A stretch of DNA of 64,000 nt, taken from contig CAVYBH010000008.1 of NCBI GenBank assembly GCA_963766715.1, positions 64,001-128,000 on the forward strand. Reading direction: 5' to 3'. Shown in pieces: positions 1 to 42,808 of the stretch; positions within the stretch are counted from its first letter, which is position 1, and the number at the start of each line of letters is the position of its first letter. This stretch comes from an uncultured delta proteobacterium. GTDB lineage: Bacteria; Myxococcota; Myxococcia; Myxococcales; Anaeromyxobacteraceae. The notes under the pieces were generated by a model, which was not told the DNA's origin, made no database searches, and saw only the letters and a list, made by a program, of their open reading frames with translations. The translations under genes and the position numbers were made by a program.

Positions 1-238
1 GAGCCTCGACGAGGTGGAGGCCCGCCTGCGGGCCCGGGGGCCGACCGCGGTGGTCGCCGGCGACGACCGGCTGCTCGTGTTCTGCGAGTACGGAGATCCG
101 GCGCTCTTCTCCGAACTGGCGAAGGAGCTTGCCCGCGACCTGCGGGCAACCGAGAATTCCTTCGTCTTCCGGCGGATACCGGCGCTTCCGCTCACCGCGA
201 GCGGAAAGCCCGACTACCAGAAGCTCGTGCCGCCGTAG
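1..238 (+). CDS. 3' end of an AMP-dependent synthetase/ligase (partial, starts before the window)
   Basis: SLDEVEA...LPLTASGKPDYQKL carries the A10 lysine motif of the adenylating-enzyme C-terminal subdomain. Stop at 236-238, just upstream of the NRPS. Confidence 0.75.
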   Translation, partial: SLDEVEARLRARGPTAVVAGDDRLLVFCEYGDPALFSELAKELARDLRATENSFVFRRIPALPLTASGKPDYQKLVPP

Positions 239-265
239 ACGCTCCGTCGATTCGAAGGGGGGGGA

Positions 266-3200
266 ATGGTTTCAGGCCGCGATGGATCGCCAGATGGCTG
301 GACGGCGCTCGAGCTGCGCCTGGCCCGGATTCTGGGAAGAGGTCCTCGGGCGGGAATCCGTCGACCGGGAGGACGACTTCTTCTCGCTGAACGGCTCCTC
401 GATCACGGTCATCGAGCTGCTGGCGCGCGTTCACGGCGAGACCGGCGTCGAGCTGGGATTCCAGGACGTCTTCCGGGCCCCGGTCCTCCACGAGCTCGCC
501 GAGCTGATCGAGAAGGCCACGGGCGGAGACCGCTCCAGGCGCCACCTCCCGGATCGCGCGTTCGCCCCCGCGGGAGGAATACCCCCTCTCCTTCGCGCAG
601 TCCCGCCTCTGGTTCCTGGAGGAGCTCTACCCGGGGATGCCCGCGTACCGGACCATCACGGGAATCTCCCTTCGCGGCGCGCTCCGCCTCCCCGAGCTGC
701 GGACCGCGCTCGACCAGGTGGTGGCCCGCCACGCCATCCTGCGCACCACCTTCCACGCCCACGGCGGCGTCCCGGTCCAGGTGATCCAGCCAGCCTCGCC
801 GGTCCCGCTTCCCGCGGTGGATTCTGCGCGGACACGCGTCCCCCGAGGACGAGGTCCGGCGCCTGGTGCGGGTGGACGTGCGGGCACCGATGGACCTGGA
901 GGAGGGCCCGTTGTTCCGGGCCAGGCTCGTCCGGCTCGGAGAGGAGGAGCACCTCCTTCTCCTCACCATCCACCACATCGTCTTCGACGCCTGGTCCCGG
1001 AAGGTGCTCCTGCGGGATCTCGGCGCCTTCTACCGCCGGGCGTGCCGAGGACGCGACCGCCGTCGAGGCGGTCGAGCCGCTCCCGGTCGACTACGTCGAC
1101 TTCGCGGTGTGGGAGCGCTCGCCCGAGAACGACGCCCGGCTCGAGGTCGACCGCGCCTTCTGGAAGGAGCACCTCGGCCGGGATCCGATTCCGCTCGAGC
1201 TCGCGACCGACGAGGCGCGGCCGGCGGTCGAACGGTTCGAGGGGCTGCGCGAGACCCTGAGCCTTCCGCCGGAGGTCTGCGCCGGGCTGGAGCGCCTCGC
1301 CGCGGCGAAGGGAAGCTCCCTCGCCACGGTGGTCCTGGCGGGCCTCCAGGCCCTGCTCCATCGCCACACGGAGAGCGATTCGGTGGTGCTCGGCCTGGTG
1401 GTCGGAGGGCGGGACCAGGCGGGCACGGAGCCGCTCGTCGGCCTCTTCATGAACGAGCTCGCCCTGCGCACCGACGTGGCGCCCGACGAGACCTTCTCCA
1501 CCCTGCTCGCCCGGGCGACCCAGGCCACGCGGGACGCGCTCGCCCACCAGGGCCTCCCGCTCGACGAGCAGATCCGCATCGCACGCCCGGGTCGCCAGAT
1601 CGACCTGTCGCCCCTGTTCCGCGTCGCCTACAACTTCAAGCCCCGGCTGCAGGCCACCGTGGACTTCGGCGGCGGACTGGTGGGGGCGGACGTCGACCTC
1701 GATCCCGGCGTGGCGCTCATCGATCTGATCCTGAACGCGGTGCAGGTCGACGAGGGGCTGGCCGTTCACTTCGACTACGACCGCGACCTGTTCCGGCCCA
1801 CCACGGTGAAGCGCCTCGCCCTGCACCTCCGGGCCCTCCTCGAGGGCGCGATCGCCGACCCGGACCGGCCCGTGGCGCGCCTTCCCCTGATGAGCGCCCC
1901 GGAGCGGGAAACGGTGCTGCGAGGCGTCGCAGGGGCCGTGGCCGGCGGAGGCGGCGCCGGACGTGGTGGAGCGGATCCGGGAGCAGGCGGTTCGGCGCCC
2001 GGAGCACGTGGCGGTGGAGGCGCCGGACGGGAAGCTGACGTACGCCGAGCTCGAGGCGGCGAGCAACCGGCTGGCGCGGAAGCTCCGCTCGCTGGGCGTG
2101 GTCCGGGAATCGCGGGTGGGCGTGGCCGTTCCGCGCGGGGCGCGCGAGCTGTGCGCGCTGCTGGGGACGCTCAAGGCGGGCGGGGCCTACGTCCCGGTCG
2201 ACCCCGGTCACCCGGTGGAACGGGTGCGCGTGATCCTGGAGGACGCCGCCCCGGAGGTGCTGATCGCGCCGTCGGACTCGCCGCTGCGCGACGCCATGCC
2301 GCCGGGGACGCGCGCTCGCTCGCGCTCGACGACCTGGCGGCCGCCACCGCCGGCCTCGACGGCTCGCCGCTCGACGAAGCCTTCGACCCGGAGCAGCTGG
2401 CCTACATCCTCTTCACCTCCGGCTCGACCGGGCGCCCCAAGGGCGTGGAGGTGCTGCGCGGCGGCTTCGCCAACTTCCTGCGCTCCATGGCGAGGGAGCC
2501 GGGGCTCCGGGAAGACGACCGCTTCCTCGCCATCACCACCACCACCTTCGACATCTCCGGCCTCGAGCTCTTCGGGCCGCTCTGGGTCGGGGCGACGACC
2601 GCCATCGTCGACCGCCAGACCTCCATGGACCCCCGCCTCCTCGGGGACCTGCTCGCCACGGGAGGATTCACCGTCCTGCAGGCCACGCCGGCCACCTGGC
2701 GCATGCTCGTCGACGCCGGATGGAAGGGCACGCCGGGGCTGCGGATGTTCTGCGGCGGCGAGGCCCTGAGCCGCGACCTCGCCGACCGCCTCCTCGAGCG
2801 GGGCGGCGAGCTCTGGAACCTCTACGGCCCCACCGAGACCACCGTCTGGTCGACCCTCGACCGCATCCTCCCGGACGGCGCGCGCATCACCATCGGTCGC
2901 CCCGTCGACCGGACCCGGGTCTACGTCCTCGACCCGTCGCTCTCGCTCGTGCCGCCCGGCGTCGTCGGGGAGATCTTCATCGGCGGCGACGGCGTCGCCC
3001 GCGGCTACCGGGGGCGCCCCGACCTCACCGCCGAGAGGTTCCTCCCCGACCCCTTCGGCCCTCCGGGCTCCCGCTTCTACCGGACGGGCGACCTCGGCCG
3101 CCTCCTCGAGGACGGGCGCTTCGAATGCCTCGGCCGCACCGATCACCAGGTCAAGGTTCGCGGCTTCCGCATCGAGCTCGGCGAGATCGAGGCCGCCCTG

Positions 3201-6200
3201 CGGACCGTCCCGGGCGTTCGCGAGGTGGTCGTCGTCGCCGAGAGGCGAGCCGAGGGCGACCCTCGCCTCGTCGCCTACTGGACCGGCGACGTGGAGCGCC
3301 TCGCGCTCTACGAGCGGGCCCGCAGCGCGCTCGCGCCGTACATGGTTCCCTCCGCCTACGCCCGGCTCGACGCCTTCCCGCTCACCACCAGCGGCAAGAT
3401 CGACCGCAAGGCCCTGCCCAGCCCGGACGACGTCGCCTCCGACGACGTCCCCGCCCTCGTCCTGCGCCCGCGCGACGACACCGAGGCCCGCATCGCCTCC
3501 ATCTGGGCCGACGTCCTCGGCCTCGACGCCGTCGGCGTCGACCAGGACTTCTTCGCCCTCGGCGGCACCTCGCTCCTCGCCATCCAGGCCCGCTCCCGCA
3601 TCGAGCAGGAGTTCGGCCTCGAGGTTCCCCTCCGCGCCTTCTTCGAATCCCCCACCGTCTCCTCCATCGCCAGCGGGGCTCGGCTCCAGCGCCGCGCCGG
3701 CAGGACCGTCCGCGGCCGGCCCGAGCAGCGTCCGGGCGACCGACCCGGAGGCGCCGGGGGCCGACGCGCGGTCCCTCGCCCTCGGGCTGGCCCGGGCGCG
3801 CGCCGTTCCCCTCACGGCTCGACAGAGCCTGATGTGGCTGGACCAGCAGCTCTTCCCGCACGCCCGCTACCACAACCTGGTCCTCACCCTCTCGATCACC
3901 GGCGACCTCGACATCGAGCGGTTCCGGCGCGCCTGGGCGGATACCGTGGCCAGGCGGGACTTCCTCCGGATCGCCGTGAGCCCGCGCGGGGCCAGCCAGC
4001 GCCTGGTGGAGGTCTCTCCCCCGACCTCCCGCTCGTGGACCTGAATCCCGAACGGCTCCAGGCCTGGGTCGCCGAGCACGGCACCCGGTCCTTCACCTCC
4101 GACGGGGTGCGCTGGGAAGCGGCGCTCCTCCGCCTCGACCGGGAGCACCACGTCTTCTTCCTCGCCACCGACCACATCCTGGTCGACGCGCTCTCGCTCC
4201 GGGTCGCCGTCGCCGACCTGGACCTCCTCTACCAGGGAAAGGCGCCTCCACCGCCTCGCTCGTTCGCCGAGTACCTCGACTTCGAGGCGCACTACAGGGC
4301 GTCGGCCGGCGCGGAGCTGGACCGTGCCTACTGGGAACGCAAGGTGGCCCTCGGGGCACCGCCCCTTCGCCCGTATGGCCTTCGGCGCACCGATCCCTCG
4401 GTGGCCGCCGAGGTCCGCTGGACCGACGCGGATCCGGTGCGAGGGGGGCGCCTGCTCGAGCTGACGCGGTCCGAGGCGTTCCGTTCCGTGAATGGACCGC
4501 TGTCCAGGATGGTGGTGTTCGCCACGGCCCTGGCGGCCTTCCTCCACCGCATCACCGGCAATCGCGAGGTGGTGCTGGGAGCCCCCGTCGCCAACCGGAA
4601 CCCGCGCTTCGCATCGACCAGCGGGCTCCTCATGGAGCAGGTCTTCCTGCGGATCCTCGTCGAGGAGGAGGACACCTTCGAGACGCTGGCTCGCAGGGTT
4701 CACTCGGAGCTGCTGGAGTCCCTCCGCCACGGGCAGGCCTGCGTGAGCGACCGCGGGATGGAGTACGTGACGCTGAACCTCCTGCCCCCACTCCCGACCT
4801 CGTTCGGCGAGCTCGCGGTGGAGATGCACGCTCGACGCCGCCGCGTCGCTCGGCGGGCCCCAGGCAGGCACCGGCGATCTCCGCGATACCTTGCGACTCC
4901 AGATCGTGGACTCGGCATCGAGCGACCTGATCCAGGTCGGCTTCGTCTTCCACAAGGCGACGTTTCCCCGCGAGGTCCAGGAGCGCGTCCTCGACCATTT
5001 CCACCGGATCCTGGACACGATGTCGGCGGATCCCGCCACGTCGATCGAGTCGGTGGGGCTTCAGGACGAGGTCGAACGCGACGGCGGTGCTCCAGGCGTC
5101 GCAGGGGCCGTGGCCGGCGGAGGCGGCGCCGGACGTGGTGGAGCGGATCCGGGAGCAGGCGGGTCGGCGGCCGGAGCACGTGGCGGTGGAGGCGCCGGAC
5201 GGGAAGCTGACGTACGCCGAGCTCGAGGCGGCGAGCAACCGGCTGGCGCGGAAGCTCCGCTCGCTGGGCGTGGTCCGGGAGTCGCGGGTGGGCGTGGCCG
5301 TTCCGCGCGGGGCGCGCGAGCTGTGCGCGCTGCTGGGGACGCTCAAGGCGGGCGGGGCCTACGTCCCGGTCGACCCCGGTCACCCGGTGGAACGGGTCCG
5401 CGTGATCCTGGAGGACGCCGCCCCGGAGGTGCTGATCGCGCCGTCGGACTCGCCGCTGCGCGACGCCATGCCGCCGGGGACGCGGCTGCTCGCGCTCGAC
5501 GACCTGGCGGCCGCCACCGCCGGCCTCGACGGCGCGCCGCTGGACGAAGCCTTCGACCCGGAGCAGCTGGCCTACATCCTCTTCACCTCCGGCTCGACCG
5601 GGCGCCCCAAGGGCGTGGAGGTGCTGCGCGGCGGCTTCGCCAACTTCCTGCGCTCCATGGCGCGGGAGCCCGGGCTCCGGGAGGACGACCGCTTCCTCGC
5701 CATCACCACCACCACCTTCGACATCTCCGGCCTCGAGCTCTTCGGGCCGCTCTGGGTCGGGGCGACGACCGCCATCGTCGACCGCCAGACCTCCATGGAC
5801 CCCCGCCTCCTCGGGGACCTGCTCGCCACGGGAGGATTCACCGTCCTGCAGGCCACGCCGGCCACCTGGCGCATGCTCGTCGACGCCGGATGGAAGGGCA
5901 CGCCGGGGCTGCGGATGTTCTGCGGCGGCGAGGCCCTGAGCCGCGACCTCGCCGACCGCCTCCTCGAGCGGGGCGCCGAGCTCTGGAACCTCTACGGCCC
6001 CACCGAGACCACCGTCTGGTCGACCCTCGACCGCATCCTCCCGGACGGCGCGCGCATCACCATCGGTCGCCCCGTCGACCGGACCCGGGTCTACGTGCTC
6101 GACCCGTCGCTCTCGCTCGTGCCGCCCGGCGTCGTCGGGGAGATCTTCATCGGCGGCGACGGCGTCGCCCGCGGCTACCGGGGACGTCCCGACCTCACCG

Positions 6201-7655
6201 CCGAGAGGTTCCTCCCCGACCCCTTCGGCCCTCCGGGCTCCCGCTTCTACCGGACGGGCGACCTCGGCCGCCTCCTCGAGGACGGGCGCTTCGAATGCCT
6301 CGGCCGCACCAATCACCAGGTCAAGGTTCGCGGCTTCCGCATCGAGCTCGGCGAGATCGAGGCCGCCCTGCGCGGCCGTCCCGGGCGTTCGCGAGGTGGT
6401 CGTCGTCGCCGAGAGGCGAGCCGAGGGCGACCCTCGCCTCGTCGCCTACTGGACGGGCGACGTGGAGCGCCTCGCGCTCTACGAGCGGGCCCGCAGCGTG
6501 CTCGCGCCGTACATGGTTCCCTCGGCCTACGCCCGGCTCGACGCCTTCCCGCTCACCACCAGCGGCAAGATCGACCGCAAGGCCCTGCCCAGCCCCGACG
6601 ACGTCGCCTCCGACGACGTCCCCGCCCTCGTCCTGCGTCCGCGCGACGACACCGAGGCCCGCATCGCCTCCATCTGGGCCGACGTCCTCGGCATCGACGC
6701 CGTCGGCGTCGACCAGGACTTCTTCGCCCTCGGCGGCACCTCCCTCCTCGCCATCCAGGCTCGCTCCCGCATCGAGCAGGAGTTCGGCCTCGAGATTCCC
6801 CTCCGCGCCTTCTTCGAATCCCCCACCGTCTCCTCCATCGCCAGGGGGCTCTCGGCGCCGCGGTCGACCCCGACGAGCCCATCGTCGCCTGGTTGTCCCG
6901 CAAGCCGGCTGGCGTGCCCCCGGTCTTCTGCCTGCTCGGGATCCAGCTCTACCAGGACGTCGCCGAGGCCCTCGGCGGCAGCCAGCCGGTGGTGGGCATC
7001 CACGTCCCGGTCCGGTACCGCCCCGGCGACAGCGCCTCCATCCAGATCGAGGCCATCGCCGCGCGATACGTCTCGCTGATCCGTTCCATCCAGCCGAGCG
7101 GCCCGTATCACCTGGCGGGCTTCTGCTTCGGGGGGGTGGTGGCCTACGAGGTGGCGCGACAGCTGGAGCGCGCGGGCCTGGAGGTCGCCCAGGTGGCAAT
7201 CTTCGACGGGGGGCTGCCCGGCGCCTTCCGGACGCAGCGCCTGGCCCAGATCCGCGAGGCTGGCTCCTACCTGATCCGGCCGTCCAGGGCCCTTGCGTGG
7301 TTCCGTCGCCGTCGACGCAGCCGCGCCGCGTCGGTCCGGCCATCGGCGAGCCCGGCGAGAGGGCCTCGTCGATCTCGACGTCACCAGCCCTGAGCTGCGA
7401 GTGACGGGGCGCAGGTACGAGCGCACGCTGGGCCGGATCCGCGCGCACGTGCTGGTGTTTCGCGCCCTCTACCGGGAACTGGGAGTCGGCGTGCAGGTCG
7501 ACCCCGATCTCGGGTGGTCCCGCTTCGCGGAGCGGGTGTCGGTCTGCATCGTCCCGGCCGTCCACATGGACCTGGTCCAGGCTCCGCAGGCCGAGACAGT
7601 GGCCGCAAGATGGACCGAGGAGCTCCAGATACGGGGCGCCCTGCCTCGAGCCTGA
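266..7655 (+). CDS. Non-ribosomal peptide synthetase, T-C-A-T-C-A-T-TE (stitched across several frameshifts)
   Basis: T0 DDFFSLNGSSIT (~370-410). C1 LSFAQSRLWFL, RHAILRTTF, HHIVFDAW (~970-995). A1 YILFTSGSTGRPKG, NLYGPTE, YRTGDL, GRTDHQVKVRG, SGKIDRKAL. T1 DFFALGGTSLL (~3545). C2 DHILVDA (4170-4190). A2/T2 are copies of A1/T1. TE PYHLAGFCFGG (7118-7132), IFDG, and VHMDL (His 7563-7565). Confidence 0.92.
1922..3673 (+). repeat. Copy 1 of a ~1.75-kb near-identical direct repeat (A-T didomain)
   Basis: Reads almost base for base like 5094-6844, from aggcgtcgcaggggccgtgg to ctccatcgccag. Confidence 0.95.
5094..6844 (+). repeat. Copy 2 of the ~1.75-kb direct repeat (A-T didomain)
   Basis: Same sequence as 1922-3673 with scattered substitutions. 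Confidence 0.95.
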
Positions 7656-7897
7656 CCCACCCAGCCTGCCGCTCGACCGAACGAACGGGCAGTCGCCCGC
7701 CCAGTCTCGGCCCCTACCCGGAAGGGAACGTCAGGATCCAGGGGGCCGTCCTGTCCTTCTCAAGGCAACGCCGCGCCGGCTCTCCATCCCGTGTCCCGGG
7801 ACTCCACGACATCCGAAGACAGGATGTGTGCGAGTGGGGCAAAGGTGGGAAAAGGTAACTGGGAGTTTATCTGGCGGGAACAAGGCGAGGGGTGGGA

Positions 7898-10800
7898 ATG
7901 ACTCGGAATCTCAGGGCCGTCGCAATGGTGTTGCTTCTCGCGTCCTGCGGCGACGGGGACTCCCCTGGACGGCGCGCTCCGTCGGCGGACGCTTCGCCGC
8001 GGCTCGACGCCGGCTCGCGGACCTTCGGCTACAACACGACCGACGGATTTTACTACGCGTCTCACAACTGGCCCCTGGTCAACAATCACCAGGTGCAGCA
8101 GGCCACGCTGACGGAGCCGGGACTCCTCACGGCGATCCGGACGTATTTCTACACCGTCAAGGATGCGCCTGGCTCCGCCATGCGCGTTCGCGGCCTCATC
8201 TACACCGACGAGCAAGGAGCCCCGGGCACGCTGCTCGCGGTGACCCCGGAGGTGACCAACATCGTCGGCGCCGCATGGCGCGAGCTCCCGCTCAGTCCCC
8301 CCATCCAGCTGGAGCCCGGGACCTACTGGATCGGCATCTGGGCCGACGGCAGCCAGGAGGCGCTGTCCCGACCTGGCGTCAATCGCTACAAGCCCGTCCC
8401 GTACAGCACGCTCGGTCCGGCGCAGAATCCCTGGCTCCAGGATTTCAATGGCGGCGTGGACGGCGGCGTCATCCGGCCCGTCTGCGGCGTCTATACGCCC
8501 GCCAGCACAATCACGGCCTCCGTGTCGCTCCAACCCAGCAGCGTGGTCGGCGGTACGGGCGCGACCGGAACGGTCACCCTTTCCGACGTTGCCCCCGCCG
8601 GCGGCGCCGTGATCGCGCTCGCGAGCAGCAACGTGGAGGTGGCCACGGTGCCAGCAAGCGTCACCGTGGACGCCGGCGCGACCTCGGCCACCTTCGCCGT
8701 GACGACCACGGCGGTGACTGCCACGGCGAACGTCACGGTCACCGCTGGCTACGGCGGCGGGACGCGAACCGCGAGCCTGGCGGTCAATCCTGCGCCGGTC
8801 GTCGTCACCCTCTCCTCGGTCTCTGTCAGCCCCGCCAGCGTCGTGGGCGGAACGGGTTCGACCGGCACGGTCACCCTTTCTTCCGCCGCTCCGGCCGGTG
8901 GCGCCGTGGTCACGCTCGCGAGCAGCAACGCCGCGGTGGCGACGGTCCCCGCGAGCGTCACCGTCCCTGCCGGCGCGACCTCGATTGGCTTTGCCATCGC
9001 GACGACGGACGTGCCGGCCTCGACGATCGCCACGATCACCGCCGCCTATGGAGGGTCCACGCGGACGGCGATCCTGGCGGTCGACCAGGCGCCGGTCGTC
9101 GTCACCCTCGCCTCGGTCTCCCTCAATCCCGCCAGCGTCGTGGGCGGAACCGGGTCACCGGCACGGTCACCCTCTCCTCCGCCGCTCCGGCGGGCGGCGC
9201 CGTGATCGCGCTCGCGAGCAGCAACGCCGCGGCGGCGGTCCCCGCGAGCGTCACGGTCCTCGCCGGCGCGACCTCGGCCACCTTCGCCGTGACGACCACG
9301 GCGGTGACTGCCACGGCAAACGTCACGGTCACCGCGGCCTACGGCGGCGGGACGCGCACCGCGAGCCTGGCGGTGAATCCGGCGCCGGTGGTCGTCACCC
9401 TCGCCTCGGTCTCCCTCAATCCCGCCAGCGTCGTGGGCGGAACGGGCTCGACCGGCACGGTCACCCTCTCCTCCGCCTCTCCGTCGGGTGGCGCCGTGGT
9501 CACGCTCTCCAGCAGCAACGCCGCGGCAGCGGTCCCCGCGAGCGTCACGGTCCTGGCCGGCGCGACCTCGGCGACCTTCGCCGTGACGACCACGGCGGTG
9601 ACTGCCGCGGCCAACGCCACGGTCACCGCGGCTTACGGCGGCGGGACGCGACCGCGATCCTGGCAGTCAATCCCGCGCCGGTCGTCGTCACCCTCGCCTC
9701 GGTCTCCCTCAATCCGCGCCAGCGTCGTGGGCGGAACGGGCTCGACCGGCACGGTCACCCTCTCCTCCGCCGCTCCGGCCGGCGGCGCCGTGGTCGCGCT
9801 CGCCAGCAGCAGCGCCGCGGTGGCGTCGGTCCCCGCGAGCGTCACGGTCCTTGCCGGCGCGACCTCGGCTGGCTTCGCCGTGACGACACGGCGGTGACCT
9901 GCTGCGGCAAACGTCACAGATCACCGCGGTCTACGGAGGGTCCACGCGGACCGCGAACCTGGCGTCAACCGGCGCCGTCGTCGTACCCTCGCCTCGGTCT
10001 CCCTCAATCCCGCCAGCGTCGTGGGCGGCACCGGGTCGACCGGCACGGTCACCCTCTCCTCCGCCGCTCCGGCCGGCGGCGCCGTGGTCACGCTCGCGAG
10101 CAGCAGCGCCGCGGCGGCGTCGGTCCCCGCGAGCGTCACGGTCCTCGCCGGCGCGACCTCGGCCGCCTTCGCGGTGACGACCACGGCGGTGACTGCCACG
10201 GCCAACGTCACGGTCACCGCGGGCTACGGCGGCGGGACGCGCACCGCGATCCTGGCGGTCAATCCTGCGCCGGTCGTCGTCACCCTCGCCTCGGTCTCCC
10301 TCAATCCCGCCAGCGTCGTGGGCGGAACCGGGTCGACCGGCACGGTCACCCTCTCCTCCGCCGCTCCGGCGGGCGGCGCCGTGGTCACGCTCGCGAGCAG
10401 CAGCGCGGCGGCGGCGGTCCCCGCGAGCGTCACGGTCCTGGCCGGCGCGACCTCGGCCACCTTCGCCGTGACGACCAGGCGGTGACTGCCACGGCCAACG
10501 TCACGGTCACCGCGGCTACGGCGGCGGGACGCGCACCGCGAGCCTGGCGGTCAATCCTGCGCCGGTCGTCGTCACCCTCGCCTCGGTCTCCCTCAATCCC
10601 GCCAGCGTCGTGGGCGGAACGGGCTCGACCGGCACGGTCACCCTCTCCTCCGCCGCTCCGGCCGGCGGCGCCGTGGTCACGCTCGCGAGCAGCAGCGCCG
10701 CGGCGGCGGCGGTCCCCGCGAGCGTCACGGTCCTGCCGGCGCGACCTCGGCCGCCTTCGCCGTGACGACCACGGCGGTGACTGCCACGGCCAACGTCACG

Positions 10801-12240: not shown

Positions 12241-12419
12241 TCCGGCTCGCGGGCCGTGCGTTGGGGGGGCGCCCGTTGGAGGCATCTCGACGGGGACGCG
12301 CTCGATTCGATGCCGATGGCCAGGGCCCCGTTAAGAGAATGCGGCGCCATGCCACCGATCCGCGCAGTCCGTGCAGCGCGTGAACGGCGAAGGCGACACC
12401 CGCGCAGAAAGGGATGACC

Positions 12420-15680: not shown

Positions 15681-15682
15681 GG

Positions 15683-18270: not shown

Positions 18271-18385
18271 TGTCGACGAGGCTATCACACGATCTGCGTC
18301 GTCGCCGTGCCACGACCCGGGTGCATCCGGAATCCGGTGTCACCAGGTCAGGGTGGCGATCGTGCGGTGCACCCAATCAGGTCGT

Positions 18386-27260: not shown

Positions 27261-27301
27261 TCCCGCCGGACCGCCCTTCCGCTATTATCCGGCTCGCCCC
27301 C

Positions 27302-27858: not shown

Positions 27859-27897
27859 ACGCGCCGCGGGTCTCCCGGGACGCTGCGGCTCGACCGC

Positions 27898-32390: not shown

Positions 32391-32469
32391 CACGCGCGAC
32401 CCGCCCCCTCGTTCGAGGGACTCACCAGGAAGACTCCCCCGTGCTAGCCATTCGATGCACCGAGGCCAC

Positions 32470-33454
32470 ATGCCCCTGACCCATCCCCTCACCATCGACC
32501 CGGAGAAGGTCGCCGAGCAGATCTCCCTGGCCATCCGGGAATCCGTCCTCGGTACGCTGAAGCGGCGTGGCGCCGTCGTCGGGATGTCCGGCGGCATCGA
32601 CAGCTCCGTCGTGGCGGCCCTCTGCGCCCGGTGCCCTCGGGCCGGAGCGGGTCTTCGGGCTCCTCATGCCCGAGCGCGACTCCTCCCCCGACGCGCTGCG
32701 ACTCGGCCGGATGCTCGCGGACCACCTCGGGATCCGCCACGCCGTCGAGGACATCGCTCCGGCGCTCGCCGGGCTCGGTTGCTACGACCGGCAGCTCGAG
32801 GCGATCCGGATGGTGGTCCCGGAGTACGGCGAGGGCTGGAAGTGCAAGCTCTACCATGCCGTCGATCCTCGGACGGCGACCGGCTCAACATCACGTCGCT
32901 CGACGGTGGCCGACCCCGCCGGGGAACCAGCGCTCGGTGCGGATGACGCCGGCCGCCTACCTCCAGATGGTCGCGGCCACCAACTTCAAGCAGCGCACGC
33001 GCAAGATGATGGAGTACTACCACGCCGACCGCCTGAACTACGCCGTCGCCGGCACGCCGAACCTGCTCGAGTACGACCAGGGCTTCTTCGTGAAGCAGGG
33101 CGACGGGGCGGCCGACTTCAAGCCCATCGCGCACCTCTACAAGACCCAGGTGTACGCCCTGGCCGAGTACCTCGGCGTTCCGGAGGAGATCCGCTCCGCG
33201 GCCGCCCACGACCGACACCTTCTCGCTCGCGCAGACCCAGGAGGAGTTCTACTTCGCTCTCCCGTACCGCGAGATGGACCTCTGCCTGTGGGCGCACAAC
33301 CACGGCATGCCGGCAGCCGAGCTGGCCCCGGTCGTCGGGCTCACGGCCGACCAGGTGGAGCGCGTGTACCGCGACATCGAGGCCAAGCGGCGGGTGAGCC
33401 GCTACCTGCACCAGGCGCCCGCTGCTGATGGGCCCCGGCGGTCGCGGAGCCTAG
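32470..33454 (+). CDS. nadE: NH3-dependent NAD+ synthetase-like N-type ATP pyrophosphatase (frameshifted)
   Basis: VVGMSGGIDSSV, NFKQRTRK, GTPN.LEYDQGFFVKQGDG and KPIAHLYKTQVY. Confidence 0.85.
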
Positions 33455-33456
33455 CC

Positions 33457-35512
33457 ATGTGCGGCATCGCCGGCGTCGTCACGCTCCGCGACGGGCTGTC
33501 CCCCGCCGACGATGGCGGAGCTCGAGGCCATGGTGGGCGCGCTTCGGCACCGCGGGCCGGACGAGTTCGGCATCTACCGGGACGCGCGCGCCGGGCTCGG
33601 GCACGCCCGGCTCTCCATCATCGACCTCGCCACCGGCCAGCAGCCGCTCTCGCAACGAGGACGGGACCCTGTGGGTGGTCTTCAACGGGGAGATCTTCAA
33701 CTACGTCGAGCTGCGCGACGAGCTGACCGCCCTGGGACACGTGTTCCGGACCCGGAGCGACACGGAGGTCATCGTCCACGCCTGGGAGGCCTGGGGCGAG
33801 GAGGCCTTCGGCCGGTTCAACGGCCAGTTCGCCATCGCCCTGTGGGACGAGCGAGCGGAGGAGCTCGTCCTGGCGCGGGACCGGCTCGGCGTCCGGCCCC
33901 TCTACCTCTGCGAGCACGACGGCCGGCTCTGGTTCGCCAGCGAGGTGAAGGGCATCTTCGCGGGCGACCCCGCCATTCCCCGGGAGCTCGACCCGGTCGG
34001 AATCTCCGAGACCTTCACCTTCTGGACGGTGGTGCCGCCGCAGTCCGTCTTCCGGGGCGTGACGGAGCTCGAGCCGGGCCACCTGCGGCGGGTCTCCCGG
34101 CGCGGCGTGGTCGACCGGGCCTTCTGGAGCCCGACGCTACCCGGCCTCCGGACGGGGCGCCTTCGCCGGCTCGCTCACCGACGCGACGCGCGAGGTGGGG
34201 GGAGCACTCGAGCAGGCCGTCCGCCTCCGCATGCTGCGCGCCGACGTCCCGGTGGGTTGCTACCTCTCCGGCGGCCTCGACTCCTCCCTCGTCGCCGCCC
34301 TCGGACGGAGGGTGAAGGGCGACCGGTTCCTCACCTTCTCGGTCCGCTTCGAGGACGCCGAGTACGACGAGACGCCCTACCAGCGCAGCGTGGCGGCCAT
34401 GATCGGAAGCGATCACCGCGAGCTCGCTGGTGCGGCGGTCGGACATCGGGGAGGCCTTCCCGCGGTGGTCGCCCACGCCGAGCGGCCGTTGCTCCGGACC
34501 GCCCCGGCTCCGCTCTTCCTGCTCTCCGGGCTGGTGCGCGAGTCCGGGATCAAGGTGGTCCTGACCGGAGAGGGCGCCGACGAGATGTTCGCCGGGTACG
34601 ACCTCTTCCGGGAGGGGAAGGTGCGGCGCTTCTGGGGACGCCAGCCCGGGTCCTCCCTTCGCCCCCGGCTCCTGGAGCGGCTCTACCCGTACCTGGCCCG
34701 ATCTCCCGTGGGGCAGCAGGCCCTTGCCCGGGAGTTCTTCGGCCGCGGACCGGGGCGACTGGGCGGCCCCCGGCTTCGCCCATCGGACGCGCTGGCAGCC
34801 GACCGCGGCCCTCCAGCGCCTCTTCGCTCCCGGGTTCCGGCAGGCCGCCGAGGCCACCGACGTGGTGGGGCGCCTGCTCGCGCTCGCTTCCCGAGGCGTT
34901 CCCGTCCTGGGCGCCGCTCGCCCAGGACCAGTACCTCGAGACCCGCACGCTCCTCGCGGGCTACCTGCTCTCGTCCCAGGGCGATCGCATGCTCATGGCC
35001 CACTCCGTCGAGGGACGCTTCCCCTTCCTCGACGCGGACCTGGTCGAGCTCGCGAACTCGCTCCCTGCCTCCTACAAGCTGCGCGGGCTCGACGAGAAGC
35101 ACGTGCTGAAGAAGGTCGCCGAAGGGCTCGTTCCGGACGAGGTCGCTGCGCCGCCCCAAGCAGCCGTACCGGGCACCGGACGCCCTCTGCTTCGTGGGGC
35201 CCGGGGCGCCGTCCTGGGTCGACGGCGTCCTGGACAGCCGCGCCGTCGTCCGATGCCGGCGTCTTCGAGCCCCGGTCGGTCGAGCGGCTCTGGAAGAAGT
35301 GCCGGGCGTCGGGCGGGGGAGAGCAGTTCTCCAATGCCGACAACATGGCGCTCGTGGGCGTGCTCTCGACCGGGCTGCTCCACGAGCGCGCTCGTCCGTT
35401 CCCCTCCCGGCACGGGAACGGAGATCGAGGTCCGGACGCGGGTCGACCACCTGGCCGGCCCTGGCGCCGGACGCCGTCTTGCGGCAAAGTCCTGGACGGG
35501 GGGAAGTCATGA
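33457..35512 (+). CDS. asnB: Asparagine synthase (glutamine-hydrolysing) family amidotransferase (frameshifted)
   Basis: [51 protein letters not shown] and [17 protein letters not shown]. Confidence 0.93.
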
Positions 35513-35816
35513 GCACGCACGGGGGAGCAGTGGTAGCCTCGACCGCTCGACGAACGGAGGAGGCTCCACTGGAAGTCCGAGATCGCGTCAGGCAGTTCAT
35601 CATCGAGAACTTCTACGTCAGCGATCCGTCCGAGGTCGGCGACGACGTGTCCCTCATCAGCAGCGGGCTCGTGGATTCGACCGGCATGCTCGAGGTCATC
35701 TCCTTCCTGGAAACCGAGTACGGCTTCCACGTGGAGGAGCAGGAGACCACCCCGGCCAATCTCGAGACGGTCGGCCGGATCGCCGACTTCGTCGTCCGGA
35801 AGCGACCGCCGCCTAG
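35509..35816 (+). CDS. Stand-alone acyl/aminoacyl carrier protein
   Basis: VRQFIIENF...SLISSGLVDSTGMLEVISFLE...TTPANLETVGRI, with the Ppant Ser in DST. ATGA overlap with the asnB-like gene. Confidence 0.9.
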
Positions 35817-35826: not shown

Positions 35827-36845
35827 TCAGAGGATGGCGCGCAGCCGCGTCCGCCGCAGGACCGACGACGAGCCACAGGGTCGGGCGGCACGCTCACGAG
35901 GACGAGCAGGACCGGGCCCAGCTGGATGCCCATGACCCGCTCCAGCCGCATGACCGTCTGCGTGTAGAGCGGTTCCTGCAGGAGGTAGCCGCCGAGAAGA
36001 GCGGCGTGATCTTCTCGATCCATCGCCCCGGCGGGTTGGGCAGCAGCGCCCCCGCCGCCACCAGGCCGAGCGCCAGCGCATAGCGAAGGGGCTCCGCCGT
36101 CACGAGCGGCGTTCCCGCGGGACGGAGTGCGAGGCTCGCACCCAGCGCCGCGACGCAGGCGGCCAGCACCGCCCACCACACGAGCCGGACGTTGGCCCAG
36201 GGACGCGCCAGCGTCCTCCCCAGCATGAGGCCGAGCGGGACCGCGGGCAGGCCGAAGGCCCACTGCCGGAACGGCTCGACCCGGATGTCGGCGAGGTGCG
36301 CGAACGCGATGGCCGCCACGCCGAGCAGGCCGCAGGCGACGAGGAAGAGGCGCGTGGGGACCTTCTGCGTCCAGACGTCGAGGTAGTGGACGGCGATCCC
36401 CACGATGGCCGCGAAGGGCAGGAACCAGAGGTGGATGGTGGTCCCGTAGAGGAGCATCCGGGCGTTGACCATGTCTCGGCACGGAGACCCCGTTCCGCAG
36501 CCCGATCACCAGGCCGGCCGCCCCGAAGAGGAGCGACCAGGCCACCCAGGGAAAGAGCAGCTTCTCCACCCGCACCTGGATGAACTTCCGGGTCGGCTCC
36601 GGCGTGGGAAGGCGGGACGCGAGCGCGAAGCGGAGCAGGAGGAAGATGGGCAGGCCGGCGCCCAGGAACAGGTACTCCCCCGACATGTGGAACGACGCGA
36701 TGTCCAGGAACGAGAGGAGCCGCAGGCGGTCCCAGTTCGCTCTGGCGCGCGCGCTTCGGCTGGCCGGGGCGCGGCGGCGTCGTGCGGGGGCGCCTCCTCC
36801 CGGGAGGAGGGGCCGCCCGCTCGATCGCCGCGCCGGCCTAGTCAC
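35827..36845 (-). CDS. Acyltransferase-3 (OafA/WecH-like) membrane O-acyltransferase (frameshifted)
   Basis: WDRLRLLSFLDIASFH, LPIFLLL, RVEKLLFPWVAWS and HLWFLPF, with many TM segments. Confidence 0.8.
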
Positions 36846-39800
36846 TGGCAGTCAGCGAGGTCCCGGAGAGCCTGCAGGCCACCGCCGCCTTCACGTATCC
36901 CTGCCACGGCTCGGTTCCGGTGTGGTCGCTGCCCACCGAGATGGCGCCCCCGGCCAGGTCGGGCGGCGCGCCCGTGAGCGGCGACCCGTCCGGCCGGCGT
37001 CAGCGCGACGTCGTTCACGTACAGGGTCATGGTGCCGTTGGGCGCGACGCATCCCTTGATCCGGGCCGACGTGTCGACCGGGATGGAGAAGTCCGCCTTG
37101 GCGAACCCGTTCACCGCGCCCTGCACGAACATCTCCAGGAGGTGCCGCCCGCCGTGCCCATGACCATGAGCCTGCACCGTCTGGCGCCTCGACGTCGGCC
37201 GGGAAGGACCACCGACCAGGGTTCGCCGGTCGAAGAACGGTCCCTGCCAGGTCATCCCGGTGGGCGGCTGGGCCTCGGCGCCGATGCAGAAGCCGGTCGC
37301 GGCCGTGCTCGGGCTGAGGGCCGGGAGGGTGAGCACCTCCCGGGTCGGCTGCGTGGCGAGCGAGCTGTAGATGGTCGGGCCCGGGTCGAAGCCGAGCGGG
37401 ATCACCGGGCGCCGAGACGCCGGCGATGTCCCGGCCCAGCTGGGTGAGGACCACGCCCCAGGCGTGGAACTCGATGGGCGTCGCGCCGTCGTTCCGGAGG
37501 TAGACCGTCCCGAGCGCGGTCGGGCGGGGCGGCGTTGAGCCCGGTGAGCTGGACGTTCGTCCACGTGGTCAGCGCCGCGAGCGGGATGTCCTGCGAGCCC
37601 AGCGGCGTCGGCGGAACGGTGCCCGGGATGTCCGAGGCGACCGTGAGCGTCCCGGTCTGCGTTCCCACCGCGCGCACCCAGATCTGGCCGTGGGCGGCCC
37701 CCGGGTTCACGAAGGCGGTGAGGGGGAGCGAGAGGCTCGCGCCGGCGGGCAAGCAGGATGCGGGCCGCGTTCGCGATGTCGGCGTCGCCCGGCGGGAGCG
37801 CGTCGTTCGGGGTCACCACGGGGGCGCCTGCGCCGCCCGCAGGAGTACGCGACCACAACTGCAGCGCCTCCGGGTACTGGACGCGGTTGGTCGCCTGGAG
37901 CCCGAAGAGGAAGCCCTTGCCGGCCGGGTCGATCCGGGGCTGGTTCTTCCAGGCCGTGTGGTAGGGCGCCCCGGCCCCGACGCCGGGGTAGTAGCCCTCG
38001 CGGTCGCGCACGTAGCTGACGGTCGTCGAGCCGTCCGGCATGAAGAGCCCCAGGATCGCGGCCGTCTTGGCCTCGATGTTGGCCCGGGTGGCGGGGAGCC
38101 TCCACACCGCGGTCTCGTAGACCCGGCCGCCGAAGTCGTGGTGGAGGTCGTTCGCGGCGTAGCCACCCACCGAGGCGTGCGCGAGCGACGTGACCATCGT
38201 ATCGGTCGGGGGAACCGCCGTGGCCGGCGTGGAGAACCGGCCGTTCGCGGCCATGGCGAGGGTCCCGCCGGCGGCGTCGCGCCCGCCGCAGAGCACCACG
38301 TACGAGGGGTTGATCGGGCCCTGCGGGTCCCCGAGGGGCATCGCGAAATCGGTCGCGATGGCGGCGACCTTCTCGCCGGAGGAGCTCTGGTAGCGGAAGG
38401 AGAAGAAGACGCTGCTCTGCATGAGCGCCCACCCGGCGATTCCGCGCTCGCCCTTGGCGATGATGATGCTGTCGTCGGCGGGTGCATTGACCGGGTTCCA
38501 GTCCGGCTTCACCACGGCGCAGACGAGGAGGTCCCCCTGGATGTCGAGGGCGTCGTCACCGGCGGTCGCGACGTAGCGCGACCCCGGCGCGGACGTCGAA
38601 CGGGCCGGCGCTGTAGCGGGTCACGCCCAGGCTGCCGACGCCGTCGAGCGGGTTGTTGGTGACGGGCGCGCCGTCCGGAGCGGTCCACACGATCGCGCTC
38701 GACTCGTGCTGGACCGGGGTCAAGACCAGGTGCTCGACGAGGTCCGGGTCGGCGTCCGGCCAGAAGGACGCGCTCGTGCCCCCCCACGCGGTCGGCGCCT
38801 GCCACTTCTGGAGCAGCACGACCGGCGGGCAGGTGACCGTCACGCTGGTGACGTTCGCGCCTCCCACGGTGCCCGTGCCGTTCGCCGACCGTGCAGACCT
38901 GCGCGGGCGCGCTCGGCTGCGTGAACACCGTCACCGCGTAGGCGCCGCCGCTCACCACCGGCGTCGCGAAGGTGAAGCCCCGTTCGCCGCGACGGCGAGG
39001 TTGTCGCCGCCGTTGTTGCGGAGGACGAGCCCGGTGCCGTCGAGGCCGGTCACCGTTCCGCCCACCGTGAAGCCGCTGGTGACGCAGGTGACGACGACGT
39101 TCGTGACGTTGGCGCCGCCCACCGTGCCGGTCCCGGCGCTCACCCCGCACGTCTGCGCGGGCGAGCCGGGCTGGGTGAGCACGGTCACCGCGTAGGCGGC
39201 GCCGCTGGCGACCGGCGTCGTGAAGGTGAAGGAACCGCTCGCGGCGACGGCCAGGTTGTTCCCTCCGTTGTTCTGGAGCACGAGCCCGCTGCCGGCCAGG
39301 CCCGAGACGGTTCCGCCGATCGTGAAGGTCCGGGTGACGCAGGTCACCGACACGCCGGTCACGTTGGCGTTCGCCACCGTGCCACTGCCGCTCGTCACCG
39401 AGCAGGTCTGGGCCGGGGAGCTCGGCTGGGTGAGCACCGTCACCACGTAGGCCCCGCCGCTCGCCACGCGCGACGTGAAGGTGAACGCGCCGTTCGCGGC
39501 GACGGTCAGGTTGTTGCCCCCGTTGTTCTGGAGCACCACGCCGGCGCCGGTGGCGAGCCCGCTCACCGTCCCGCCGACCGTGTAGGTCTGGCTGGCGCAC
39601 ACCACGCTGACGTTGGTGACGTTGGCGCCCGCCGACGATGCCGGTCCCGTTCGCGACCGTGCAGGTCTGCGACGCCGGGCTGGGTGAGCACGGTCACGGC
39701 GTAGGAGGCGCCGCTCGACACGGACGTGGGGAAGGTGAAGGCGCCGTTCGCGGAGACGGTGAGGTTGTCGCCCCCGTTGTTCTGGAGCACGAGGCCGCCC

Positions 39801-40430
39801 CCGACGAGGCCGGTGACCGTGCCGCCGATCGTGTAGGAGCCGGTGGCGCAGGTGACGGCGACGCTGGTGACGTTCGCGCTCCCCACCGTGCCGCTGCCGC
39901 TCGTCACCGTGCAGGTCTGGGACGGAGCGGACGGCTGGGTGAGGACGGTCACCGCGTAGGCGGCGCCGGTCGCCAGCGGCGGTGGCGAAGGTGAAGGGCC
40001 CGTTGGCCGAGACGGCCAGGTTGTCGCCGGCGTTGTTCTGGAGGACGAGGCCGCTGCCGGCCAGCCCGCTGACCGTTCCGCCGACCGTGCGGGTGACCGC
40101 GGCGCAGGTGACGGCCACGCTCGTGACGTTCGAGGCGCCCACCGTGCCCGCGCCGTTCGCGACCGTGCAGGTCTGGGCGGCGGGCTGGCTGGCGACCGTG
40201 ACCGCGTAGGTGGCGCCGCTCGCCAGCGCGGTCCCGAAGGTGAAGGTCCCGTTGGCCGAGATGGCGAGGTCGCTTCCCCCGTTGTTCCGCAGGACCAGAC
40301 CGGACCCGGTGAGGCCGGTCACCGTGCCGCCCACCGTATAGGTGGTGGTGGGGCCGCCTCCGCCGGAGCTCGTGCAGCTGGCGAGGACGGCGACCGACAG
40401 GACGGCTAGCCACTTCGGCGAGACAGGCAT
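36842..40430 (-). CDS. Large lipoprotein: six ~85-aa repeats plus C-terminal beta-sandwich (LamG/ConA-like) domains (frameshifted)
   Basis: MPVSPKWLAVLSVAVLASC lipobox and repeat unit YTVGGTVSGL.GSGLVLQNNGG. C-terminal region has DLLVCAVVKPDW, GGRVYETAVW and GTMTLYVND. Confidence 0.8.
38830..40345 (-). repeat. Six coding tandem repeats, period ~255 bp, each with two Cys
   Basis: Units start near 40340, 40090, 39835, 39585, 39327 and 39070: GGTVSGL...NNGGDNL.V.ANG.FTF...SGA.YAVTVLTQP....QTCTV..G.GTV..ANVT.V.VTC. Confidence 0.92.
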
Positions 40431-40576: not shown

Positions 40577-41785
40577 CTACCCGGGGCTCGCGCCGCGGAA
40601 GAGCGCCTCGAGCCGCTCCGCCGAATGGGCCACGTCGAACTCCGGAAGGAGGCGCGCCCGGCCTCCCTCCACGACCCGCGCCCGGAGGGCCGCATCCCCT
40701 GCCAAGGTGGCCATCCGGTCGGCCAGCTGGTCCCAGCGGCCCACGGTGTAGAGCAACCCCGTCTCCCGGTGGATGACGAGCTCCGGGATCCCCGTGATGG
40801 CCGGCGCGATCACCGGGAGCCGGAGCGCCATGGCCTCCATGAGGACGACCGGCAGCCCCTCCATGAAGCTCGAGAGGACGAACACGTGGGCCCGGGACAT
40901 GGCCTCGAGCACCGCGGACTCGGGCAGCGCGCCGCGCAGCTCGACCCGGTCGCCGAGGCCGAGCGCGTCGACCACCGCCCGGATGCGCGCCTCCTCCGGC
41001 CCACCCCCGATGAGCACGAGCTGGGCGTCGAGCCCCTTCCGCACGGCGCCGGCAAAGGCCTCCACCAGGCCCACCTGCCCCTTCTCCGGCGAGAGGCGCC
41101 CGACGGAGAGGACCTGGATCCGCTCCCCGGGCGCGGGCCAGCGCGGCGCCGGCTGCGGGAGTGCGTCCGCCTCGACTCCGCAGCGGACCACGTGGAGCTT
41201 GTGCCAGTCGCCGGGATCGCTGAGCCGCATGGTCTGGCCGCGCCCGAAGTCGGTCACCGAGATCACGAAGCGGCTCGCGGCCACCTTCCGGGCGAGCAAG
41301 GGCGTCGTCGGACCGTCGAAGTCGCCGAGGCCGTGGAGCGCGATGCTCCACCCGATCCCGAGATACCGGGCGGCGGCCATTCCCACGTGGGACGCCGGGT
41401 TCGCGAAGGTGTTGTGGAGATGGGTGACGCCGCGCCGCTCGAGCTCGAGCGCCAGCCGCATCGCCTCGGCGAAGTACGCGAACGACAGGAAGAGGCGCTT
41501 CGCGCCGGGGAGGCGGTGCCCGAGCGTGTCCGACAGGGTGGACAGGAAGCGCCCGGGGCTCCGCGCGAAGGTCCGCACCAGGCTCGCCGCGATGGGCAGC
41601 CAGGGACGCTGCAGCACGTAGAAGGTCCGCGCCTCCTCGGCCCGGTCCGCCTCGGAGAGGCTGTGCGCCGGGCGGATCGAGAAGGTCTCGACCTCCACGC
41701 CGCGCTTGCGCAGGGCCGCCACCTCCCGCCGCACGAAGGTGTGCGACGGGAGCGGGTAGTGACTGACGAGATATCCGATCCTCAA
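40577..41785 (-). CDS. GT4 glycosyltransferase (WcaL-like)
   Basis: IGYLVSHYPLPSHTFVRREV, LSVGRLSPEKG and SSFMEGLPVVLMEAMA (EX7E). TTG start overlaps the deacetylase stop. Confidence 0.92.
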   Translation of the reverse strand: MRIGYLVSHYPLPSHTFVRREVAALRKRGVEVETFSIRPAHSLSEADRAEEARTFYVLQRPWLPIAASLVRTFARSPGRFLSTLSDTLGHRLPGAKRLFLSFAYFAEAMRLALELERRGVTHLHNTFANPASHVGMAAARYLGIGWSIALHGLGDFDGPTTPLLARKVAASRFVISVTDFGRGQTMRLSDPGDWHKLHVVRCGVEADALPQPAPRWPAPGERIQVLSVGRLSPEKGQVGLVEAFAGAVRKGLDAQLVLIGGGPEEARIRAVVDALGLGDRVELRGALPESAVLEAMSRAHVFVLSSFMEGLPVVLMEAMALRLPVIAPAITGIPELVIHRETGLLYTVGRWDQLADRMATLAGDAALRARVVEGGRARLLPEFDVAHSAERLEALFRGASPG

Positions 41786-42808
41786 CGTGCCCCCGGGAAG
41801 AAGTGGCTCAGGCGGAGCGCCATCCGCGCCTCGGAGAGGGCCCCGGCCCGGCTCCTGGCGCGTCGCGCGTCGATGTCGCACCGGCGTGAGCCGGAACGGG
41901 TCGGCGCCGGGCGCGTTCGGTCCCCACGCCGTGGTCACGGCCCGCAGGTAGCCGGCGCGGCGAACCGCCTCGACCACGCGCTCGTCGCAGTCGCCGTTCG
42001 GGTAGCAGAAGGACTCGCAGGGCACCCCCAGCTCCTCCTCCAGCCTGGCCCGGGAGCCGGCCACCTCGCGCTCGAGCTGGGCGTCGTCGACGAGGGGCAG
42101 GATCGGGTGGGTCACGCTGTGCGAGCCCACCTCGTGCCCCGCGCGGGCCAGCGCGCGGAGCTGATCCCAGGACATGAGGCCGTCCCAGGCTGGCCGGGCC
42201 GGTCCCGGGAGCGTCCCCTCCACGCGCGCCACGAAGGCGAGCCGGTCCGCGGGCGACAGGCGCTTGGCCCGCTCCATCGCGCCCTTCACGATGGCCCGAT
42301 CGTCGCCGGCGCCGCCGAGGATCGCCTCGGCGCGGGACCGATCGGCGGCGATCAGGCGGGTCGCCGCGTAGCCGAGCCGGTCGTGCCAGAGGAGCTCGTT
42401 GCGGTCCACGCCCTCCACCGGGACGAAGAAGCTCGCCGCGATGCCGGCGCGATCGAGCACCGGCCGGGCGTGCTCGTGGCCGTCGAGCTGCCCGTCGTCG
42501 AAGGTGATGGCCAGGAACGGTCGCGCGGGGCGTTCGCCCTTCTCCCAGCGCCGGTAGGTCGAGGCCAGCGTCCCGCAGGTGTAGTGGGCGGCGAAGAACT
42601 CGACGAACCAGCCGAACTCCTCGACCGACACCGCGATCTCGGGGATGGGGTACTCGCGGAGCTGCTCGGCGGGCAGGACGCGGTGGAAGGTGACCACGGT
42701 GAGCCGCCCGCGGGCCACCCGGGACGGACGGGTGACGCCCGAGGCGAGCAGGAGGGCCCCGGCCACGTCCCGCGCGAGCGGCTGGAGAGTTGACCGGAGG
42801 GAGGCCAT
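41782..42808 (-). CDS. Polysaccharide deacetylase (CE4/NodB family)
   Basis: TFHRV, ITFDDG, VGSHSVTHPIL and FCYPNGD. One frameshift near 41880. Confidence 0.92.

Follow-up and report, generated by a model that had tools for sequence, protein, structure and literature searches.

A candidate NRPS cassette for acyl-glycyl-glycine decoration at a myxobacterial exopolysaccharide locus

The 64,000-nucleotide stretch analysed here (the window) covers positions 64001-128000 of contig C8 in genome G000, from an uncultured myxobacterium of the Anaeromyxobacteraceae, and holds an exopolysaccharide (EPS) locus of the Wzx/Wzy type. At one end of this locus is a cassette formed by an Sfp-type phosphopantetheinyl transferase (PPTase), a stand-alone AMP ligase (ligase 1) and a modular non-ribosomal peptide synthetase (NRPS), the PPTase and most of ligase 1 falling upstream of base 1. 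On balance we favour the view that this cassette is an accessory module of the EPS pathway, which would build an acyl-Gly-Gly unit, with the NRPS thioesterase (TE) passing the predicted unit to a lipid-linked repeat. The genomic association between the NRPS and EPS genes is well supported, and the locus would represent a new variant of carrier-protein glycan decoration, predicted from its genes and unproven as chemistry.

The cassette and its predicted product

The G000 assembly is 4.2 Mb in size with 72% GC and 85% completeness. As its genes are broken by frameshifts, the region was parsed with a frameshift-aware model and the resulting pieces were compared with Pfam (76 pieces) and NCBIfam (36 pieces), while genes beyond 44.6 kb of the window were read by eye only. 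Frameshifts may conceal genes, and one scan for AT3-family acyltransferases missed the window's own AT3. The cassette comprises three genes:

about -1980 to -1240: Sfp-type PPTase, directly upstream of ligase 1 (family scans)
1..238, + strand: 3' end of the stand-alone AMP ligase 1, whose start lies ~1.17 kb upstream at C8:62.8 kb
266..7655, + strand: NRPS, T0-C1-A1(Gly)-T1-C2-A2(Gly)-T2-TE(Cys), in frameshifted pieces (parse plus Pfam and NCBIfam)

The NRPS starts at 266, 28 bases past the ligase 1 stop, and its carrier (T), condensation (C), adenylation (A) and TE domains follow in the order of a modular NRPS: T at 330-536, C at 538-1919, A-T at 1921-3728, C at 3730-5073, A-T at 5078-6854 and TE at 6857-7655. 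The sequence-only reading of this DNA, which had called a complete NRPS, is borne out by this T-C-A-T-C-A-T-TE arrangement. It had also left open that the DNA upstream of base 1 might be a self-contained metabolite cluster, and this region instead holds ligase 1, the PPTase and then an unrelated reductase gene. No second NRPS-like locus was found in the assembly using blastn, or tblastn with the parsed pieces, and a promoter and terminator scan of 7000-8600 found nothing. In agreement with the earlier reading, MbtH was not found in the genome at its 85% completeness, and no exporter or siderophore receptor was recognised in the window from parses, scans and, beyond 44.6 kb, inspection by eye.

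Both A1 and A2 give the specificity code DILQFGLVWK, which we take to be a glycine code. The best single-domain PDB match of the A domains is DhbF, with AB3403 also near the top, and the Asp, Gln and Trp that the available text of PMC11253843 describes for the DhbF glycine pocket are retained in the code. The peptide portion is therefore strongly predicted by the A-domain code to be Gly-Gly. Code and nearest structures also point to glycine-specific adenylation onto a carrier, as in AlmEFG, with the A domains here lying inside an NRPS and not standing alone. The condensation motifs are HHIVFD in C1 and DHILVD in C2, against a canonical HHxxxD; C2, with its DHxxxD motif, is divergent and unique, with ~30% identity to anything retrieved. 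C2 (4017-4829, + strand) appears to have been inserted along with a near-exact A-T duplicate, as a recent module expansion.

The nearest PDB entries to ligase 1 are VinN and oxalate-CoA ligases. At the position of the amine-binding Asp230 of VinN, ligase 1 has Ser, as seen in all 21 of its closest homologues. A small acid lacking an amino group is therefore the probable starter, which would make it an acyl group and not an amino acid. The same substitution, together with a loop that is one residue longer and not shortened, led us to reject ligase 1 as a VinN-type beta-amino-acid loader. Ligase 1 does keep an Arg aligned with VinN R331, and judging by the role of this residue a dicarboxylate starter would be our guess. 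Ligase 1 is predicted to load the N-terminal T domain of the NRPS (T0). Of the X-Gly-Gly unit proposed in the sequence-only reading, the Gly-Gly part thus stands, and X is probably acyl and not an amino acid.

Distribution and polysaccharide context

Using the C1 domain at E 1e-95, we obtained matches in four of 92 family genomes, all within the genus, and a fifth carrier with a frameshifted NRPS (G008) was read directly, giving five of 14 genus genomes versus none of the other 78 family genomes at this cut-off. One metagenomic locus contributes an extra orthologue (L041/L042, which share sequence and are counted once). A protein search returned six T-C-A-T-TE proteins at 57-61% identity, compared with 33-41% for the other 113 listed. 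In T0-C1 profile scans of genome and metagenome collections, the only matches at or above 47% identity among those listed were L041, L042 and L121, the last being the locus of G001; the genome scan covered 41 of 64 parts, which makes the range of the NRPS family a lower bound.

Ligase 1 homologues at 62% identity or more fall into 21 clusters, four of which lie on contigs equal in size to that of one of the six NRPSs, and this suggests that the NRPS and ligase 1 travel together as a pair. The PPTase is likewise adjacent in G000, G001, G006, G008 and L041, and on contig C495 of G004 it comes before the ligase. In a phylum sample of 401 genomes, ligase 1 matches were present in four, with G027 alone lying outside the genus. 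There (L035:17877 to L036:3597), a homologue of 52-55% identity sits in a glycosylation cluster without an NRPS, whose members include an acyl carrier protein (ACP)-sized gene, SDR, LuxE, LuxC, a hexapeptide transferase, AcpS and a DegT aminotransferase; this cluster suggests where the NRPS starter ligase may have originated.

The orthologues differ in their modules. G000 encodes Gly-Gly, six others have one Gly module (G004, G006, P0007, P0022, P0026 and P0041), three have one non-Gly module with an acidic pocket (G001, P0017 and P0035), and G008 combines Gly and non-Gly modules. A domains and TEs have been swapped among them, with C1, A and TE each having different nearest relatives. The five carriers are scattered on a gyrB tree built from 13 genomes. 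Their distribution needs three changes, with 0% of bootstrap trees requiring only one, and three changes were reached in 76 of 500 shuffles. Swapped A domains and TEs, together with scattered carriers, are as expected of a variable surface substituent.

All six NRPS contexts have polysaccharide-related neighbours, and in four (G000, G001, G006 and G008) a Wzx or glycosyltransferase lies on the same contig as the NRPS. In G001 a GT4 is directly upstream and Wzx ~4 kb downstream, in G006 a GT2 and Wzx are within ~4 kb, and in G008 a GT4 and WecG are upstream with Wzx ~26 kb off. The other two contexts are contigs of only 6-7 kb, with ACP/AsnB directly downstream of the NRPS on the 6-kb contig of G004, and a CE4 deacetylase and AT3 beside it in L041/L042. 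The flanking genes vary between contexts and the polysaccharide link persists. As a control, 157 loci were fetched with the C1 profile, of which 154 were non-orthologous (median 14.6 kb, searched with fragment queries); none of these generic C-domain loci matched the EPS-side genes of this locus, and none had a ligase at 45% or more. Co-occurrence with polysaccharide loci in relatives, which the sequence-only reading had anticipated, is thus upheld. All five carriers are also among the seven of 14 genus genomes with this Wzx type (Fisher p 0.02, for genomes that are kin and not independent).

The EPS pathway itself is of the Myxococcus type, with Wzx and an EpsV-like co-polymerase at the locus and the priming glycosyltransferase, OPX and EpsX-like barrel genes on a separate contig (C10:45.9-50.8 kb). 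In G000 these last three are thus separated from the locus, whereas G001 has them in one cluster. Core homologues of the M. xanthus EPS system (EpsZ, Wzx, Wzy, EpsV, EpsY, EpsU, EpsE and EpsC) were identified by NCBIfam, all below equivalog cut-offs. The M. xanthus pathway components given in the available text of PMC7484181 include no NRPS or carrier cassette, and a further difference is the location of the priming and export genes on another contig here. As a close priming-glycosyltransferase homologue is present in 13 of the 14 genus genomes, the NRPS cassette would be accessory to this pathway.

A different carrier cassette was seen inside the EPS locus of G012, which has no such NRPS (L200:1562-9916), and we count this in favour of an EPS role; a copy in G001 (L025:4094-12868) lies ~25 kb beyond the EPS locus. 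Both contain a B12 radical SAM protein, an acyl-CoA dehydrogenase, a stand-alone adenylation enzyme, two ACPs and two ketosynthases, and the G001 copy additionally has FabG and a hexapeptide acyltransferase. In the EPS locus of G020, which also lacks the NRPS, a fused double alpha/beta-hydrolase gene adjoins wzx (L206:17956-19800).

Proposed function and competing explanations

In the mechanism that we propose, the PPTase would prime the three T domains, as expected from its family, and ligase 1 would adenylate a small acid lacking an alpha- or beta-amino group, possibly a dicarboxylic one, and load it onto T0, as its active-site residues and gene coupling suggest. C1 and C2 would then add two glycines, a step strongly predicted by the A-domain code. 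In the fourth and weakest step, the Cys TE may hand the unit to an amine or hydroxyl of a lipid-linked repeat or nucleotide sugar in the cytoplasm, after which Wzx, Wzy and EpsV, with the OPX and EpsX-like proteins encoded on the other contig, would by homology flip, polymerise and export the product. Since no transferase is shared between the contexts, the simplest route would be for the TE itself to carry out the transfer, in the cytoplasm and ahead of flipping by Wzx.

We searched for such a transferase, and no candidate tracks the NRPS. MBOAT (PF03062) was found in none of the five NRPS genomes (74-96% complete), exosortase hydrolase 1 (TIGR03100) was far below cut-off in all five, with TIGR03101 not searched, and the lipid A acyltransferase family (PF03279) had no match near the cassette in five genomes. 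G001 and L042 have orthologous AT3s next to the NRPS (64% over 83 residues), and this NRPS-adjacent AT3 is common to two of six contexts only; the window AT3, which is 28 kb away from the NRPS, shows no relationship to the pair, and no AT3 was seen in the G008 locus. The SGNH family is absent from carriers G001 and G006, and a close orthologue of the CE4 deacetylase was detected in G008 only among G001, G004, G006, G008 and G009. None of AT3, SGNH, CE4 deacetylase, hydrolase 1, MBOAT or lipid A acyltransferase therefore fits as a universal NRPS partner.

The lack of a tracking transferase, including each of the MBOAT, hydrolase 1, AT3, SGNH and CE4 results, weighs against EPS decoration, and further observations do so too. 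The TE carries the motif GFCFGG, with the expected Asp and His downstream, and we had considered its Cys as a sign of transfer; however, Cys also occurs in nine of 25 control TE rows, two members of the NRPS family have Ser, and the residue is non-diagnostic. The closest solved TE, by PDB match, is that of AB3403, which likewise has Cys. In the gyrB tree the well-supported branches are compatible with one origin, and the carriers are kin. G009 and G012 share the Wzx type and lack the NRPS, and with the priming glycosyltransferase present in nearly all genus genomes the NRPS is dispensable. In G000 a distance of 6 kb separates the cassette, at the margin of the locus, from the first glycosyltransferase, and megasynthase DNA takes up most of the control loci. 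Finally, the available text of PMC5376624 ties a similar operon of A. baumannii, A1S_0112-0119, to a released lipopeptide.

This operon underlies the principal alternative, which we consider rather unlikely yet serious: that the product is an acyl-glycine(-glycine) released as a metabolite or surfactant, the placement of the cassette in EPS loci reflecting biofilm co-regulation or a recombination hotspot. As far as the available texts go, A1S_0112-0119/AB3403 (acinetin 505) is linked to biofilm (PMC5376624, PMC10510592) and follows the same logic, with a stand-alone ligase, a carrier, C-A(Gly)-T-TE with a Cys TE motif, and a PPTase, so that our cassette, with its complete release domain and no dedicated transferase found, would suit this role. 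However, the Acinetobacter operon, as there described, has a free ACP, a dehydrogenase and a candidate exporter, with product in the supernatant, whereas here the carrier is fused as T0, the modules are strain-variable and the context is an EPS locus, and in none of the six contexts did the parses show a recognisable exporter next to the NRPS. A released product also does not readily account for a polysaccharide link that survives reshuffling of the neighbours and that none of the control loci shows.

A second alternative, which we hold to be improbable, is that the peptide is placed on a short lipid-linked oligosaccharide or membrane lipid to give a small glycopeptide or amino-lipid, with Wzx serving for export only. 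Carenaemin of Collimonas arenae Cal35 is the relevant parallel: according to the available text of PMC8313283, it needs both an NRPS-polyketide synthase and a Wzy-dependent locus, which are genetically interdependent, and attachment to the repeat before flipping is proposed. There, the two loci are separate and the product is a diffusible antifungal. In our case, a co-polymerase at the locus and OPX and EpsX-like genes make up a long-chain EPS pathway, and the lipid A acyltransferase search near the cassette came back empty.

Slightly less probable again is a relay resembling Dlt or AlgIJX, in which the NRPS product crosses the membrane via AT3 and SGNH proteins place it on the polymer outside. 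The sequence-only reading had proposed a single machinery of this kind, also drawing in a second ligase (ligase 2), NadE, AsnB and a free ACP. An AT3 and two SGNH proteins are indeed at the locus, the catalytic triad of the second (SGNH2) is intact with PatB near in fold, and the orthologous AT3s of G001 and L042 flank the NRPS. Nonetheless, the SGNH family follows the NadE paralogue and not the NRPS: 22 of the 25 SGNH-positive genomes have NadE, compared with 41 of 92 genomes overall, and SGNH is present in three of five NRPS carriers and in 22 genomes without the NRPS. As SGNH tracks NadE, MBOAT was not found in the five carriers and the window AT3 is unrelated to the G001/L042 pair, the Dlt/AlgIJX analogy is a better match for the ligase 2 cassette than for the NRPS, and the single-relay proposal is not supported.

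We also considered whether the NRPS could be a decaying pseudogene or an assembly duplication. Its frameshifts are many, the two windows covering the locus having 10.0 and 13.4 inferred shifts per 10 kb of coding sequence compared with a median of 5.4 (36 windows on four other contigs), and A1-T1 and A2-T2 share 98.3% DNA identity over 1771 bases (blastn). However, shifts are found across the whole genome, and the five gap positions in the A1-T1/A2-T2 alignment lie at or near inferred breaks, with the two copies breaking at different places. Short-read contigs from run X1, whose reads are not from this strain, served as a check; they show single-base differences from the window at 4017, 4830 and 5082, which are breaks placed by the parse, and one contig of 637 bases spans the C2-A2 junction. 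These differences and the bridging contig demonstrate that the two-module gene, and with it the second module, is real. With unbroken orthologues also found in relatives, among them the 1380-residue one-module protein of G004, the frameshifts are most likely assembly errors and decay or an assembly duplication is highly improbable.

Returning to EPS decoration, the swappable modules may amount to a side-chain code, a bolder proposal that we put forward tentatively, in which strains would hang acyl-Gly, acyl-Gly-Gly, acyl-Xaa or acyl-Gly-Xaa on their polymer with the TE acting as a peptidyl-to-sugar transferase. Such a code might vary, if one accepts this equally tentative extension, by exchange or duplication of A-T modules between strains of one genus. 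Surface polymers are known to be decorated through carrier proteins, either with single amino acids (Dlt, Alm) or with fatty-acid-synthase (FAS)-like acyl groups. AlmEFG places diglycine on lipid A. In AlmEFG (lipopolysaccharide glycylation in V. cholerae) and DltABCD (D-alanylation of teichoic acid), as here, an adenylation enzyme and carrier serve to attach an amino acid to a surface polymer; unlike in those systems, a modular NRPS with C domains and a TE would build an acylated peptide, no MBOAT was found, no AlmG-like gene is nearby, and the presumed acceptor is a Wzx/Wzy repeat. AlmE activates glycine according to the available text of PMC11253843. For the wfpC-G genes of F. psychrophilum, the available text of PMC6519341 predicts an ACP pathway within a Wzx/Wzy locus that builds an acyl group on an amino sugar, with O-antigen R-group genes varying between strains; FAS-II-like enzymes and a PglD-type transferase are used there, and an NRPS here. 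A characterised condensation-domain NRPS building an EPS side chain was not found in our searches of the open-access literature, subscription journals being mostly not covered. If EPS decoration proves true, small orphan NRPSs in polysaccharide loci would be glycan-tailoring enzymes and not metabolite clusters, and a sugar-acylating TE would be a useful biocatalyst. With natural one- and two-module variants, the three-gene cassette offers a tractable test case.

A second cassette and the other genes of the locus

The other genes of the window are listed below, with Pfam/NCBIfam support unless stated.

7892..12250, + strand: large exported repeat protein with ~98-residue beta-rich repeats; no family hit
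12414..13727, + strand: exported Ig-like repeats with a first SGNH domain, SGNH1 (parse, scans)
13812..14819, + strand: PssD/PssE (Alg14/Alg13-like) glycosyltransferase unit
14816..16713, - strand: GFO/IDH/MocA oxidoreductase and a partner gene without family hit
16841..18290, - strand: Wzz/EpsV-type polysaccharide co-polymerase; weak here, EpsV E 7e-59 on the intact G001 homologue
18386..22300, - strand: two related proteins or repeats (74% DNA identity), probably exported; no Pfam/NCBIfam hit
23000..24259, - strand: Wzx flippase
24266..25530, - strand: EpsU-like GT2
25800..27100, + strand: probable Wzy polymerase; weak support
27212..27800, + strand: EpsC/CysE-like hexapeptide acyltransferase
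27668..29476, - strand: AMP ligase 2, of the ligase/NadE/AsnB/ACP cassette
29499..30341, - strand: exported SGNH2 with Ser-Asp-His triad (fold and homologue alignment)
30385..32390, + strand: two GT2 glycosyltransferases
32455..33428, + strand: NadE-like paralogue (PRK00876 subfamily)
33454..35450, + strand: AsnB-type glutamine amidotransferase, N-terminal MCGIAG intact
35560..35816, + strand: free ACP; weak, Pfam E 0.004, NCBIfam E 1e-11
35870..36800, - strand: AT3-family membrane acyltransferase in a broken frame; weak, Pfam E 0.002 and 0.009 in two pieces
36842..40430, - strand: large exported repeat protein (parse)
40577..42808, - strand: CE4 polysaccharide deacetylase, then in-frame EpsE-like GT4

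The scans recovered both stand-alone AMP ligases, NadE, AsnB, Wzx and five glycosyltransferase units (PssD/PssE, the EpsU-like GT2, two other GT2s and the EpsE-like GT4), as the sequence-only reading had called them. Its free ACP, AT3, Wzz and Wzy are present with weak calls, that of Wzz being firmer through the G001 homologue. For Wzy the window pieces gave no hit, the G001 homologue matched PF04932 at E 2e-5, below cut-off, and the G008 and G020 homologues gave none. The best NCBIfam label of the ACP, ornithine lipid ACP, is far below cut-off and was rejected.

Ligase 2, NadE, AsnB and the ACP are clustered and conserved together, and with SGNH2 they form a second, independent module. The NadE paralogue occurs in 41 of the 92 family genomes and is distinct from a stronger NAD synthase match at C8:433.8 kb. 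At six NadE loci lacking the NRPS (G012, G020, G036, G017, G021 and G115) the block lies among or beside polysaccharide genes, and in G001 the ligase 2 block is on a different contig from the NRPS, in a housekeeping neighbourhood. Ligase 2 has Cys at the amine-binding Asp position, for which reason we did not adopt aspartate as its substrate. The module likely supplies an amidated acyl substituent. The predicted fold of SGNH2 is that of an SGNH protein (pLDDT 90), with PatB among the nearest folds, and Ser53, Asp248 and His251 are invariant in 120 homologues; SGNH1 is 45% identical to it, in keeping with the two SGNH-like exported proteins previously noted.

Four gene types in one block at 27.7-35.8 kb recall SMb20650/SMb20651 of S. 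meliloti, which presumably have asnB and nadE as neighbours, the likeness being one of gene type. That system has no NRPS. Ligase-dependent acylation of the ACP SMb20651 by SMb20650 is reported in the available text of PMC7232532.

The repeat proteins at 7892-12250 and 36842-40430 are possible EPS-binding adhesins; in the first, the N-terminal domain recurs at the C-terminus (78% DNA identity). The tandem 74%-identical sequences at 18386-22300 sit between wzz and wzx. The CE4 and GT4 regions at 40577-42808 form one frame of 743 residues, and as the G012 homologues are adjacent, in the same frame and parsed as two genes, the fusion may be an error.

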